From Eledone cirrhosa (Eukaryota), in contig OZ024740.1 of assembly GCA_964016885.1 (NCBI GenBank), forward strand, positions 442,308,001 to 442,372,000: a stretch of 64,000 nucleotides of DNA. The letters are read 5' to 3'. The translations under genes and the position numbers were made by a program. Below are positions 25,979 to 59,510 of the stretch, piece after piece. A model generated the notes under the pieces. That model was given only the letters and a program-made list of their open reading frames with translations. It made no database searches and was not told the DNA's origin. Each line of letters begins with the position of its first letter. The first letter of the stretch is position 1.

Positions 25979-26113
25979 TATATATATATATATATATATA
26001 TATATATATATATATATATATATATATATATATATATATATAAAATCAAGGTTTAGCAAATAAGAAAAAGTTTTAAAATAAATTTTTAAAAGTTCACTGT
26101 GCCTGCTATAACT

Positions 26114-26197
26114 ACCCTTACCGTGCGGTTTCAAGTCTCAAAATAAATGGATAATCCATGCGGGAATCCATTGAGAAGAAGACTTTCGTCAGAGGGT
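26114..26197 (-). ncRNA. Type I hammerhead ribozyme
   Basis: Minus strand: ACCCT, CTGACGA, AAGTCT..aatggat..atccatt..AGACTT, GAAA, CCG ca CGG, TA, AGGGT. Confidence 0.9.
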
Positions 26198-26596
26198 TCT
26201 TCTCACTCGGAGAATATAAAATACCCGAGTTGAAATCACGAACTGGCGCCATACAGAACTGTTCCCGGATGAGAGTGTATGATGAAGAAACAATTTTGTC
26301 TAGTGCCGTGTGTAAAGATAGAAGGCAGGGGCGGAAAGGTCAATGTACTGTCACTAGAAATAGCAGCAGTTAAAACGACCAAAATGTTATCTCGACCAGG
26401 GGAGATTAATAATAATAAAGTATGTTTCCCTACATGCAAAATGCATATAGGTATACATGTATTATCCAACCGTATGCCAATGTGGTTCTATGGCAGGTTA
26501 ATAAATTAACGAGCCAGAATATATATAATCAAGGTTTAGCAAATAAGAAAAAGTTTTAAAATAAATTTTAAAAAGTTCACTGTGCCTGCTATAACT

Positions 26597-26680
26597 ACCC
26601 TTCCCGTGCGGTTTCAAGTCTCAAAATAAATGGATAATCCATGCGGAAATTCATTGAGAAGAAGACTTTCGTCAGAGGGT
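26597..26680 (-). ncRNA. Hammerhead copy with U16.1->G (probably inactive)
   Basis: Same as 26114-26197 but the cleavage triplet reads GGA. Confidence 0.7.
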
Positions 26681-26892
26681 TCTTCTCACTCGGAGAATAT
26701 AAAATTTTCCCGAGTTCAAATCACGAACTGGCGTATATATATATATATATATATATATATATGTGTGTGTGTGTGTGTGTGTGTGTGTGTGGTCTGTCTG
26801 TGTGTGTGTGTGTGTGTGTGTGTGTGTGTGTGTGTGTGTGTGTGTGTGTGTGTGTTTATTTATATATGTACTTGTGTGTTTATATATATATC

Positions 26893-27170
26893 CGTGGTCA
26901 GGGTATTCGTGAGTTCGATTCCTGGCTACGCGTTGTGTTCTTGAGCAAGACACTTTATTTCACGTTGCTCCAGTCCACTCAATTTGCAAAAATGCGTTGT
27001 ACCTGTAATTCGAAGGATCAGCCTTGTCACACTCTGTGCCGCACTGAATCTCCCTGAGAACTACGTAAAGGGTACGGGTGTCTGTGGAATACTCAGCCAC
27101 TTGCACGTTAATTTCACTACTAGGCTGTTCCGTTAATAGTATCATCGTCGTAACCGACGGAGCGACTCCG
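26893..27170 (+). mobile_element. CORE-like SINE
   Basis: gagttcgattcctgg...gtgttcttgagcaagacactttatttcacgttgctccagtccactca. Confidence 0.75.
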
Positions 27171-27699
27171 TTTATATGTGTGCTCCTTTATATATATATA
27201 TATATATATGTGTGTGTGTGTGTGTGTCTGTGTGTGTATGTGTGTGTGTGTGTGTGTATGTGTATATGTGTGTGTGTGTGTATGTGTGTGTATGTGTGTG
27301 TGTCTGTGACCTATATACACTGGTCACAGACACACATACATACACGCACGCACACACACACTCACACACAGACACATATAAATATATATATAGAGAGAGA
27401 GACACATATACACATGCTCTTAGAAACCCTTCCTATTTAGCAGGAAATATTCGCTATACACATCCTGTCCAAACATAAGTTATGTGAAACATATGATTAA
27501 GTATTCAGTCACTACATTAGACTTAGATACAGTAATGCTGTATTGTATTCAATTCTTTGAAGTTACCTGTTATAATTTCTTTCACCAACACCATCATCTC
27601 TCTCTCTCTCTCTTTCTCTCTCTCTCTCCCTCTCTCTCTCTCTCCCATTTCTTTCTCTTTCTCTCTTCCATTTTATTTTTCTCTCTCCCCATGTCTCTC

Positions 27700-28008
27700 T
27701 TTAAATCTACTCTCTCACAACCACACACACTCTCTCTCTCTCTCTCTCTCTCTCTCTCTCTCTCTCTCTCTCTTTCTCTCTCCCTCTCTCTCTCTCTCCC
27801 TCTCTCTCTCTTTTTCTATTCATGAAGGTACCCGGAAAAACCCCGTATCTCGGGAACCCATGCTCTGATTTACGCGAAACTTGTTTTATTCCATTTGTAT
27901 TCTTATTTCAGGGGCAATTTTCTTTCAAATTATTTTCCCATTATGCGCCGTTTTGGCTATATTACATTACAGAAAGCTCACAATCACAGAGTTTTAGTAG
28001 TATATAGA
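27700..28008 (-). mobile_element. Second copy of the Helitron-like repeat
   Basis: Homologous to 22110-22357; ends ttttagtagtatatagat. Confidence 0.5.
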
Positions 28009-29227
28009 TTTTATGAATGTTTGAAATTGGTAAATTCCAGTAGAAATCTTTCCACTGTTTCTTCGTTTATTTTTGCTTTAATTCTAGTAGAATAATAAAA
28101 CAAAGTAAAATATAAAGACTTTGGTTAAGAAGAAAAACTAAAGATTTGCCTATTCTTTATAAAACATATGTGAAATGTTAATGGCATGGAAACTCTGAAG
28201 AATAATTGGAAAAGAATTAGAATATCTTTATGGTTTCATGTAATGTTGCCGTGTTACTTATAAAATCTACCTGTTGATACTTGTAAAAGAATTCTATATT
28301 TAAAATAAACTGCAATGCAATATAGATGAAATAAAGTTAGAATTAAGAGAAGTTTAAACGACAATAACTAGTATCATACACAGAAATAAAACCAATTTAA
28401 AATAGAGTTATTTCTAATAACTAATATTTCCTGTTTCTTATTCTATATTTCCACTTCTGAAAATATACTTTTTTCTCATTCAAGTAAAACTCTTTGAGTT
28501 TTGTTGCTATTTTTGTACATTAATTTCGTTAATTTAATCTGAAGGTTGAATCTAATGGTTAATCTTATTGAATGAATTTTCTTGTCAACCGTGTGTTATT
28601 TATACTCCAAGGTAATCCTGTAGAATAATTCTTTAGATTATATTTTTATCACTTAATATCATAAATTCAAAAGTACTTTCTATCAGCACTTCTAGCGCTT
28701 GTGGCTTAGCTAATTCAATTCTATCTATATTCTCAATTTCGCAGCTTCTCCGATTTTTTGCTGTTTGTTATTTTCATCACTAATGGCAAATGGCACTTAT
28801 GCTAGACAATTTTGTAACACAGTTTTATTCTTCGTAAGCATCGGTTAAACACGATAATATTTCATATTCATATAAGTGTTTAGTATTCATGTAAGTACAA
28901 GTATAAAGCAAAGTCTAAACAGACACAAGTATTTAAGAAATTATATACATTTAATTGTTTACATCCCTCAACAACTGAAAATAGCTGTTGGAAATATTTT
29001 GATTTTATATATAATATTCACATAAATATGATATTTTATTTTCAGTCCAAATCTCCAGAAAATTGTTTAAATGATTTTTATGAGTAAATACAGATTTTGT
29101 AATTGTATACAACACAGTTTCTTTCTCAATGAGAATTTCTCTAGGGACGAAGCTATAGAGTTTGACTTCGAAGAAAATATCACCTTTTCCGCTATTGCAG
29201 ATGATGTTACTTCTAATATGGTATGGT

Positions 29228-57318: not shown

Positions 57319-57787
57319 AGTTAGTTACATCCATTAATTTTATTGTGTTCTACTTGCCTGCGTGTATATATGTATATATATATATAAATACACGCAGCGA
57401 GAAGCGAGAAGCGAAAACCAACCAAACAATGAGTGTGTTCTGTTAGAAATGAATGGAATAACAACAACACCCAAACAAACAACACTGACCTAAGAGAAGT
57501 ATAAATAAGTAAATAAAATAAAATAAATAAATAAATAAATAAATAAATACATACACAAGCACAATAACAACAAGCACATAAACACACACTAGTCACCCAT
57601 CACACAGCAAACAAAACACTATACACACACACGCAAACGCATGCGCAAAGAAGACAAAATAAAATAAACAAACAAGCAAATAAATAAATAAATATATAGA
57701 CAGACTGAATAAAAATGGCGTAGACATACAATACAACAGGAGGAAAATATAGCACCACTGACGCACACACACACACACACACACACA

Positions 57788-58270
57788 TATTTGTTGTGAA
57801 AGAGTCATTTCTCAATCTTGGCGCAAAACCAATTTTTTATTCACATGACCTCTACCGACCAATCAAAATTGTTTTGACCACAAGAATTGTTGCTGGAGCC
57901 ACTTTTTTTAACATAAAAACAGTCTTGGCGCAAAATCAATTTTTTACACTCACATGACCTCTACCGACCAATCAAAATTGTTTTGACCACAAGAAATTTT
58001 GCAACACCAAAGTAACGCTGGAGCCACTTTTTTAACATAAAAACAGGTAGAATTCCCAAAACTAATCAGATCAGAGCAAACAGCACGGACACTCTATCTC
58101 CAAATTATTTTTGAAGAGCATTTAGAAATGCGCAACCGGTAAAAACTTAAAAACTTAAAACCACAACTGAATACTAACCCATACAATCACTAATACTCTT
58201 TTATTCCTAATTAAACCATTTTTCAACTGTGAACAATTTGTCAGCATTTTCTATTCCGTTTACCAATATA
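57788..58270 (+). mobile_element. Second copy of the 23880-24252 element with an internal ~105-bp duplication
   Basis: Direct similarity; tcttggcgcaaaa..aacataaaaacag occurs twice. Confidence 0.85.
58108..58144 (+). ncRNA. Hammerhead variant (U3.G8; GCAA)
   Basis: TTT, TTGAAGA, GCATTT ag AAATGC, GCAA, CCGG, TA, AAA. Confidence 0.45.
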
Positions 58271-58548
58271 TAATAACTTGTGTGTTACACCTCTATTCTT
58301 TTAACTATGTATATATATATATATATATATATATATATATATATATATATATATATATATATATATATATATATATATATATATATATATATATATTTAT
58401 ATCAATATATATATATATATAAAATATCAATATATGTATATAATTTTATTGTGTATATATATATATATATATATATCTTCCAACAGAAATGGTCGCATTC
58501 TTTAAGGGTATGTCAATATTTATTTATTTATAAAACTGCTCTATATTA

Positions 58549-58614
58549 TATTTTATCTGATGAAAGCACACCATAATTTTAACTTGGTGTCCTTGAAATA
58601 TGTATAATGAAATA
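58549..58614 (+). ncRNA. Type I hammerhead ribozyme
   Basis: tattttat, CTGATGA, aag-c-acacca..tggtgt-c-ctt, GAAA, TATGTA, TA, atgaaata; element ~58476-58645 between (TA)n tracts. Confidence 0.8.
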
Positions 58615-58660
58615 AATATGGTTTTATAAATATAGTTTCCATTTGTATATATATATATAT

Positions 58661-58798
58661 TAGAAAGTGAAGTTTTCTTTACAAAATGAAAAATAACCGA
58701 GGTGTCCTACACGAGTGAAAGTATAAAGAAAAAAAGATGAAATCGAAAATTCAACTGTAGTCTTATTTTAAAAACAAATATATATTTATTTGGTTCCT
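58661..58798 (-). mobile_element. 3' portion of the 62042-62275 element, in (TA)n
   Basis: Reverse complement aligns to 62136-62275. Confidence 0.85.
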
Positions 58799-58929
58799 AT
58801 ATATATATATATATATATACAATAAAATTATATATATATATATACACAAAATAACATTATATATATATATATATATTGATATTTTATATATATATATATT
58901 GATATAAATATATATATATATATATATAT

Positions 58930-59510
58930 TTTGAGACTCGAAACCTATTAGGTAAAGGTAACCATAGTAAGTACAGTGAATGTTTTGAAATTTATTTTGA
59001 AACTTTTTATTATTTGCTAAACCTTGATTATATATGTTCTGGCTCGTTAATTTATTAACCTGCCATTGAATCACATTGGCATATGTTTGGACAATACATG
59101 TGTCCCTATACGCTTTTTGCGTGTAGGGATATATACTTTATTATTATTAATCTCCTCTTGGTCGAGATGAAATTTGGTCGTTTTTACTACTGCTATTTAT
59201 AGTGGTAATAGATTGACCTCCCTGCCTCTGCTTACTATCTTTGCACACGGCACAGGACAGAATTGCTTCCACATCACTCATTCTCATCTCGGGAACAATT
59301 TTGAATAGCGCCAGTTCGTAATTTGAACTCGGGAATTTTATACTCTCCGAGTGAAAAGAACCTTCTGACGAGAGTTTATCTTTTCAATGGAAGCCCGCAA
59401 GGACTGTCCATTTATTTTTGAGACTCAAAACCGATTCGTACATAGTAGGTACAGTGAATTTTTTGAAATTTATTTTGAAACTTTTTCTTATTTGCTAAAC
59501 CTTGATTATA
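58930..59510 (+). mobile_element. ~1.2-mer of a ~487-bp HHR unit (diverged relative of 26042-26733)
   Basis: 58930-59030 recurs at 59417-59510; 3' half-HHR at 58934-58959; degenerate HHR at 59360-59440. Confidence 0.85.

Follow-up and report, generated by a model that had tools for sequence, protein, structure and literature searches.

Two protein-free hammerhead repeats in Eledone cirrhosa as candidate retrozymes, likely moved by a Hydra-clade Penelope-like element

What moves a tandem repeat of about 480 bp that carries a hammerhead ribozyme and no protein? The question is raised by two insertions, A and B, in a stretch of 64,000 nucleotides from Eledone cirrhosa (GenBank assembly GCA_964016885.1, contig OZ024740.1, positions 442,308,001 to 442,372,000 of the forward strand), hereafter the window. 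Judging from sequence, both are likely to be protein-free non-long terminal repeat (non-LTR) retrozymes of about 480 bp, with two short signals, or boxes, which would recruit the reverse transcriptase (RT)-endonuclease of the Hydra clade of Penelope-like elements and start copying upstream of each box. A box is a bulged hairpin of the form YUC-hairpin-UH-GAR, two of which occur in each retrozyme unit; S1 and S2 denote the two fixed points at which insertions end on the 3' side. The features of A and B are listed below.

26043-26733, minus strand: putative retrozyme insertion A (5'-truncated; 1.43 units of 483 bp), lying inside (TA)n and ending at S1 on the 3' side
25978-26042: (TA)n target flanking A on its 3' side; more (TA)n surrounds A and B at 26734-26762, 58798-58929 and 59507-59536
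26114-26205, minus strand: predicted intact type I hammerhead of A, with pseudoknot 5' strand 26205-26198, stem I 26197-26193, CUGACGA 26192-26186, stem II 26185-26180 with 26138-26133, pseudoknot 3' strand 26179-26172 followed by an inner hairpin, GAAA 26132-26129, stem III 26128-26121 and stem I 3' strand 26118-26114
26597-26688, minus strand: predicted inactive upstream hammerhead of A, its cleavage triplet having G for U at 26603
26486-26519, minus strand: box 1 of A, a UUC-hairpin-UA-GAA bulged hairpin directly 3' of S1
26391-26404, minus strand: box 2 of A, a CUC-hairpin-UC-GAG bulged hairpin directly 3' of S2
58930-59507, plus strand: putative retrozyme insertion B (5'-truncated; about 1.2 units), lying inside (TA)n and ending at S1 on the 3' side
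58933-58959, plus strand: upstream hammerhead of B, 3' half only, bearing a one-copy CCT..AGG stem III
59037-59070, plus strand: box 1 of B
59152-59166, plus strand: box 2 of B
59352-59440, plus strand: downstream hammerhead of B, broken by A for G at 59427 and by an 8-nt deletion that takes away the 3' strand of stem I

By the hammerhead consensus, the cut in the intact hammerhead of A is predicted to lie between 26119 and 26118. The base at the equivalent of position 26603 is normal in other copies, and contigs from two sequencing runs, when compared with A, showed only many variant copies.

The original prediction described A and B (26042-26733 and 58930-59510) as diverged homologues, each longer than one unit, and this is borne out by an identity of 82.9% over 607 bp (E 7e-176) and by self-repeats of 95.8% over 215 bp in A and 86% over 107 bp in B. 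The coordinates it quoted are all correct, and both copies indeed stop at AAACCTTGAT ahead of (TA)n. Its period of 483 is right for A, while the 487 given for B applies only upstream of the 8-nt deletion in the second unit and becomes 478 at the end motif. Compensatory changes had been proposed in all three hammerhead stems. The change in stem I (ACCCT/AGGGT to ACCTT/AAGGT) is found in cis in 33 of 40 B-type hammerheads (30 loci) and that at the base of stem II (AAGTCT/AGACTT to GAGTTT/AGACTC) in 32 of the same 40, and both are lineage traits. The change in stem III (CCG..CGG to CCT..AGG), on the other hand, occurs in none of the 40, 33 of which retain CCGATTCGG; the exact 19-mer with the CCT..AGG stem matches once in the 3.0-Gb genome, at window copy B itself, and we rejected it as a lineage trait in favor of a one-copy variant. 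The strands at 59360 and 58955, offered as partners, belong to two different B units, and neither B hammerhead is intact, the upstream one being without its 5' half and the downstream one having AAAA for GAAA at 59427 in addition to the 8-nt deletion. With stem I left open, the core CUGAnGA...GAAA...UH is intact in 29 of 39 A copies and 31 of 40 B copies, by the consensus that the supplement of PMC8557442 tabulates.

To place the two copies, the whole genome (3.0 Gb, 1,796 contigs) was searched with A, B and a further insertion of the window, C (24314-25272), giving 2,402, 2,687 and 1,585 first-look candidates, respectively. A hammerhead core pattern with 48 to 60 nt between CUGAnGA and GAAA matched 5,349 times, against 5 matches for the reversed pattern. 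Seven lineages, A to G, were distinguished, of which D, E, F and G were found as neighbors in the loci of the A to C searches. Besides A and B, two of them are represented in the window.

24314-25272, plus strand: about 2 units of sister lineage C (the "first" family) as one insertion, with hammerheads at 24604-24692 and 25097-25185
24785-24813, plus strand: box 1 of the lineage C insertion
24401-24414 and 24890-24903, plus strand: box 2 of the lineage C insertion
46569-46905, plus strand: insertion of sister lineage G, 5'-truncated, with a hammerhead at 46808-46851 that is without the stem II insert

Among the six lineages compared by alignment, A, B and D are 72-83% identical, C, E and F 61-73%, and the two groups 45-53%, which makes the "first" and "second" families sisters; the A/B repeats had been presented as a separate second family, but they share the architecture of the family at 24314-25272. 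The units of all lineages are 469-530 bp long, arranged in tandem, without an open reading frame (ORF) and without an LTR (primer-binding site and polypurine tract were not searched separately), and each has a type I hammerhead. The G+C content is 0.37 in A and 0.39 in lineage D, under the 45-50% limit for non-LTR retrozymes. Two consecutive complete hammerheads, by which the preprint bioRxiv 10.64898/2026.07.22.740005 defines an "active" retrozyme, are present in arrays of lineages C and D and absent from window copies A and B. In each of the six lineages tested, the units of one insertion differ less from one another than from those of other insertions (0.6% versus 3.3% in C). Lineage D is very young, with 40 of 40 scored units 99.7-100% identical and arrays on five contigs. 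At its loci (L091-L110) identical 483-bp units form arrays of up to about six units on several contigs, from which we judge that the lineage is probably active now or was so very recently.

Is the ribozyme real? The predicted fold is that of a type I hammerhead whose stem II is extended and consists of 6-7 bp, an internal loop and a hairpin of 8-12 bp. Covariation was assessed in 26 real copies, one per lineage variant from 37 clusters, after exclusion of truncated or visibly decayed copies, among them one decayed G copy that is included in the 27 representatives used for the pseudoknot below. Since the pseudoknot strands fell out of register between clades in MAFFT alignments, these were rejected for pair counting and the pairs were counted by script from core-anchored positions. 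Stem I is paired in 103 of 104 cells (99%) with two-sided changes at 4/4 pairs, stem II in 138 of 156 (88%) with such changes at 6/6 pairs, and stem III in 103 of 104 (99%) with such changes at 2/4 pairs. Selection on the RNA structure, as the original prediction had it, is thus supported through the wider family, in whose 26 representatives all three stems covary, and not through the stem III example offered for it. The short palindromic stem III suggests cleavage as a dimer, as reported for amphibian retrozymes (PMC7229834).

The 5' strand of the internal loop is able to pair with an A-rich strand just 5' of stem I. The two strands read GAGAA/UUCUC in A, GAAAA/UUUUC in B and GGAAA/UUUCC in C, E and F; with a fitted register, a pseudoknot of 5-9 bp is possible in 27 of 27 representatives, with 123 of 130 cells paired and two-sided changes seen. 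We consider it reasonably probable, from these pairings, that the A-rich strand pairs with the stem II internal loop and that this pseudoknot replaces the usual loop-loop contact. The strand opposite the pseudoknot strand in the stem II loop (26146-26139, minus strand, and equivalents) retains a U run in nearly all lineages; that this run could form U-A-U triples on the A-rich helix is speculative. The fold has its own difficulties. None of 2000 letter shuffles matches the observed stem pairing and slid registers are 0-62% paired, but the shuffles do not preserve the relatedness among copies. For the pseudoknot, the register is a fitted one, pairing in slid controls is as high as 75-78%, and there is a mismatch in lineage D. 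Also, the fold predicted to have the lowest energy in A and B is inactive. It lies 1.4 and 3.8 kcal/mol below the active fold calculated without the pseudoknot, and in it the same two pseudoknot strands pair as a plain nested helix (z only -0.7 and -1.0). The Rfam hammerhead models gave no match in the window, in A alone even at E 10, or in seven loci, a likely reason being the long stem II domain of 50-55 nt.

The ends of the insertions say more about how they arose. The end analysis covered 128 insertions (145 loci minus 17 overlapping or duplicate ones), of which 122 end at S1 (96) or S2 (26), with end windows that span about 9% of the unit; as the loci were ranked by their similarity to a whole unit and S1 was the end of most queries, the lengths and the S1 count are inflated. 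S1 and S2 lie about 100-125 nt apart, TA follows nearly always, and a box follows either site within about 10 nt. The proposal of a defined 3' end and a (TA)n target, made from the common end point of A and B, is upheld, except that there are two such ends and not one. Among 41 inverted insertions, 31 combine S1 with S2, one has S1 twice, none has S2 twice and nine have an unclassed end; the 31 of 32 classed cases depart from one half with p 8e-9, and the ranking bias does not create this pairing. The 5' ends of the 87 non-inverted insertions are scattered from -228 to +243 around the cut site and show no pile-up at it. Partial tandems, inverted 5' arms and an optional tail are all seen here, and they form the insertion signature of Penelope-like elements (PMC8557442). 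Satellite DNA spread by recombination or extrachromosomal circles, with an incidental hammerhead look, would account for tandem units and for the silence of Rfam; it does not account for dispersed insertions of 1-6 units whose 3' ends are fixed, whose 5' ends are random and some of which have 5' inversions, nor for covariation that is strand-specific. The covariation and end data largely refute this reading, which we regard as very improbable.

A candidate partner with a protein of its own is found in the same window.

47103-49488, minus strand: 5'-truncated copy of a Hydra-clade Penelope-like element, with part of the ORF at 49474-48200 and a tail to S2 in (TAA)n
47258-47234, minus strand: hammerhead remnant of this copy, with S1 near 47189
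47186-47141, minus strand: box 1 of this copy
49467-49488: short inverted S1 arm of this copy

The family of this copy is young, with 150 of 150 scored hits 98-100% identical and several frames of 709-713 amino acids. A full copy at locus L249 has a unit of 3,258 bp and a single ORF of 709 amino acids, with RT followed by a C-terminal GIY-YIG domain. Its protein has DKTG at 115, DD at 348, CxCX5C at 564, YIG at 598, CxxC at 662 and CxH, RWR in place of RWK, and no CCHH between GIY and YIG; these are the features that define the Hydra clade in section 11 of PMC8557442, and the assignment rests on these motifs, the homologues found being unnamed. Pfam named no domain in the Hydra protein. The copy has no canonical 3' hammerhead (core CAGAAGA, weak stem III) and exceeds 3 kb; in PMC8557442 a canonical 3' hammerhead and a length below 3 kb are usual, not strict, traits of the clade. 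The family inserts in (TA)n, and its two ends are 87 nt apart. Of 41 loci examined, 11 have TA-flanked ends on both strands; ten of these combine S1 with S2, and one is complex. The genome contains at least six Hydra families (2,087 matches versus 12 for the control), most of which show two boxes by eye, and copies of three families other than the young one stop 1-8 nt before a box. The published Hydra hammerheads in the supplement of PMC8557442 have a palindromic stem III with a loop of 1-3 nt and a frequent U-U pair, both of which recur in the retrozyme units, and a (TA)n target.

We also noticed that this youngest family, in both the window copy (47258-47234, minus strand) and L249 (3605-3640), has the degenerate core CAGAAGA and is nevertheless highly active, that the core of a second family is CCGAAGA, and that the hammerhead-like motif of a third contains about 90-100 nt as an insert in stem II (loci for the second and third families: L341; L145, L132). 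At L217 (2068-2075) and L218 (4766), B-type arms are joined without a TA spacer to fragments of a Hydra ORF. These joins were not used as evidence, as a mixed-template insertion and an insertion into an older copy fit them equally.

Boxes occur in both kinds of element. Exactly two boxes are found in the S1-S2 region of each of the lineages A to G (7/7), one after each site. In L249, a GCUC-hairpin-UU-GAGC box stands just 3' of S2, once per unit under the strict definition and in 0.6% of shuffles, and a long-loop version after S1, which the scripted definition missed, was read by inspection and placed in the window copy. An independent test was made on 78 metagenome loci of Hydra-like ORFs, 45 of which reach the ORF start with at least 79 nt upstream (44 distinct); six loci with at most 51 nt upstream were excluded. 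At least one box lies within 150 nt upstream of the ORF in 35 of the 44, against an expectation of 0.69 and none on the reverse strand. A second box definition gave two boxes in 21 loci, one in 15 and none in 8, and the pairs (21/44 loci) are 55-83 nt apart. When only the outer letters were required, 78 of 81 boxes still formed the inner pair, and a U-H bulge was likewise present in 78 of 81. The hairpin pairing is kept while letters and loop length change, as would be expected if the box acts as RNA. In the supplement of PMC8557442, boxes can be seen by eye in four of six Hydra consensus sequences, one as a variant, the hosts being a coral, a sea cucumber and an octopus (the variant). Three exact 9-mers of the box match six times in the 584 kb of this supplement; four matches are in the small Hydra file and the other two, outside it, are without the 5' arm of the box. 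Rfam has no family for the box.

From the boxes, the ends and the target, a Hydra-clade protein is very probably the mobilizer of the retrozymes, and the boxes probably set the start points of reverse transcription. The protein could instead come from another (TA)n-targeting Penelope-like clade, such as Neptune, Naiad or Nematis, with the boxes as relics of a Hydra terminal repeat or serving, for example, as a promoter. Naiads likewise target (TA)n and exist in octopus, the box comparison in the genome covered Hydra elements, and the window itself holds a C-terminal GIY-YIG fragment (22424-23194, plus strand; PF01541, E 2e-6) whose cysteine motifs differ from those of the Hydra protein, which marks it as a second Penelope-like type. 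We nevertheless find this origin improbable, as insertion ends stay with the boxes across six lineages and four Hydra families despite differing spacing, the box hairpin persists through letter and loop-length changes in the manner of RNA, the box 9-mers concentrate in the Hydra file of the supplement (4/6), and the 3' end of Naiad_Ovul shows by eye no likeness to the units. This last comparison was prompted by a published "HHR_half_core" annotation, and Naiad was dropped as a partner on its outcome.

Several facts speak against the Hydra-clade reading. The retrozyme boxes differ from the Hydra consensus (UUC/GAA; GAGA for GAGCAC), the S1-S2 spacing in the young Hydra family is 87 nt versus 99-115 nt between the boxes of the units, and the comparison of boxes was confined to Hydra-clade elements. 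The units have no extended DNA similarity to the flanks of 30 Hydra loci, only the two boxes being common, so the link is made through a short motif together with the end rule and the target, and similarity at these loci names no partner family. For the role of the hammerhead, the young Hydra family builds tandem and inverted copies despite its degenerate hammerhead, and hammerhead mutants left insertion unaffected in PMC11167929.

How could the boxes and the hammerhead work together? By a mechanism built from these patterns, a unit would be transcribed, the hammerhead would cut 82-98 nt upstream of box 1, and the monomers would be ligated into circles, a course of events towards which we lean slightly. 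The Hydra protein, perhaps as a dimer, would bind both boxes, nick both strands of (TA)n and prime complementary DNA (cDNA) at the AU-rich position that precedes each box. With a circle or an uncut multimer as template, the product would be 1-6 near-identical units with a random 5' end. Single priming would leave a 5'-truncated tandem that ends at S1 or S2, as in A and B, and priming on both strands would yield two cDNAs, whose joining would produce an inverted insertion that ends at S1 on one side and at S2 on the other. With some reservation, we favor the view that the box pair provides loading sites, one per active site of a dimer, which would fix the starts, explain the tail and the inverted ends, and suffice for a circular hammerhead RNA to parasitize the element. 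For a Poseidon element, in vitro work demonstrated that RT starts at two internal points and that both strands are extended, the tail being the stretch between the two starts (PMC11167929).

The tandems of the Hydra family with a degenerate hammerhead and the mutants without effect on insertion imply that circles are not required. The same Hydra-dependent element could copy linear multimeric transcripts, with the hammerhead serving release from read-through transcripts or stability, and this is a serious rival that we rate as a real possibility, if a doubtful one. It agrees with the partial tandems and inversions that the autonomous Hydra family makes with a degenerate core and with uncut RNA as the main substrate in vitro (PMC11167929), and a young homogeneous parent array could also give homogeneous arrays. 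It agrees less well with the hammerhead stems that stay paired across about 50% divergence, with arrays of nearly six units that are almost identical inside, and with the circles made by other animal retrozymes (PMC7229834). The spread of the 87 non-inverted 5' ends, without pile-up at the cut site, argues further that linear cut monomers are not the template.

How this system compares with known ones bears on its class. By sequence criteria it is a variant of the non-LTR retrozymes, likely moved by a Hydra RT. It resembles those of other animals (Cervera and de la Pena 2020, PMC7229834; Li, Clavereau and Pollet 2026, bioRxiv 10.64898/2026.07.22.740005) in the absence of an ORF, the tandem type I hammerhead units, the many dispersed copies, the G+C content (37-39% here) and the co-occurrence with Penelope-like elements, which the same sources propose as retrozyme mobilizers. 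The units of 469-530 bp are longer than the 150-450 bp of the former source and inside the range of 51-972 of the latter. What sets them apart from the known retrozymes is the extended stem II with a probable pseudoknot, the two defined 3' ends, the inverted insertions and a cis signal common to one clade. With the Hydra clade as described in the accessible portions of Craig et al. 2021 (PMC8557442) they share the (TA)n target, partial tandems, inverted 5' arms, the optional tail, a hammerhead near the 3' end with a palindromic short-loop stem III, and the two boxes; they differ in having no protein and in a tail of about 100-125 nt versus 30-40 nt, and the RNA box is not described in those portions. 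Poseidon PAc of the green anole (Frangieh et al. 2024, PMC11167929) is alike in that two internal RT starts define the tail, the target is AT-rich, both strands are cut and extended, and RNA 3' of the starts is required. It belongs to another clade, however; its starts lie 111-118 nt into the ORF in an AC-rich stem-loop, were reported as non-homologous to the target, and no duplicated conserved motif was reported, whereas here each start would be an AU-rich spot before its own box. Base-paired contacts between stems I and II in place of the loop-loop contact were reported for all three hammerhead types by Perreault et al. 2011 (PMC3088659). Here, unlike in those, 6-7 bp of stem II precede the internal loop with the partner strand, which has a further hairpin of 8-12 bp as its cap and the conserved U run opposite. 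We found no description of the duplicated box, of its tie to the two ends or of this hammerhead architecture in the literature searched or in Rfam, a negative on which further subscription papers, Repbase, Dfam and supplements may bear.

If the proposed reading is true, the box would be the first defined cis signal that ties an animal retrozyme to its reverse transcriptase, and the ribozyme a hammerhead with a new extended, pseudoknotted and perhaps triple-helical stem II. Which enzyme moves animal retrozymes, a case hitherto made from co-occurrence and terminal-repeat trees without a recognition signal, would become directly testable, as would the way in which Penelope-like elements pick two internal starts, the boxes being mutable targets. 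The genome offers for this an autonomous element that is young and has open frames, as well as a retrozyme lineage whose copies are identical across several chromosomes. The box could also be a simple marker by which to recognize Hydra elements and their parasites elsewhere, in the genomes of other hosts, and, as Rfam missed the long-stem-II hammerhead here, such ribozymes may be undercounted.

A number of other repeats were observed in the window. CUGAnGA motifs occur in small repeats beside (TA)n at 12359, 58557, 36789, 37225, 37081 and 46808, some of them short-stemmed like minimal Penelope hammerheads. A long inverted repeat at 25500-25840 has CTGACGA in each arm and is probably a tail-to-tail pair of element ends. 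The minus strand at 16151-19237 contains an open frame of 1,028 amino acids that matches RVT_1 and zf-RVT, that is, a non-LTR retrotransposon. Minisatellite arrays are located at 5769-6740 (period 50), 34220-35915 (period 18) and 51073-53930 (period 45).

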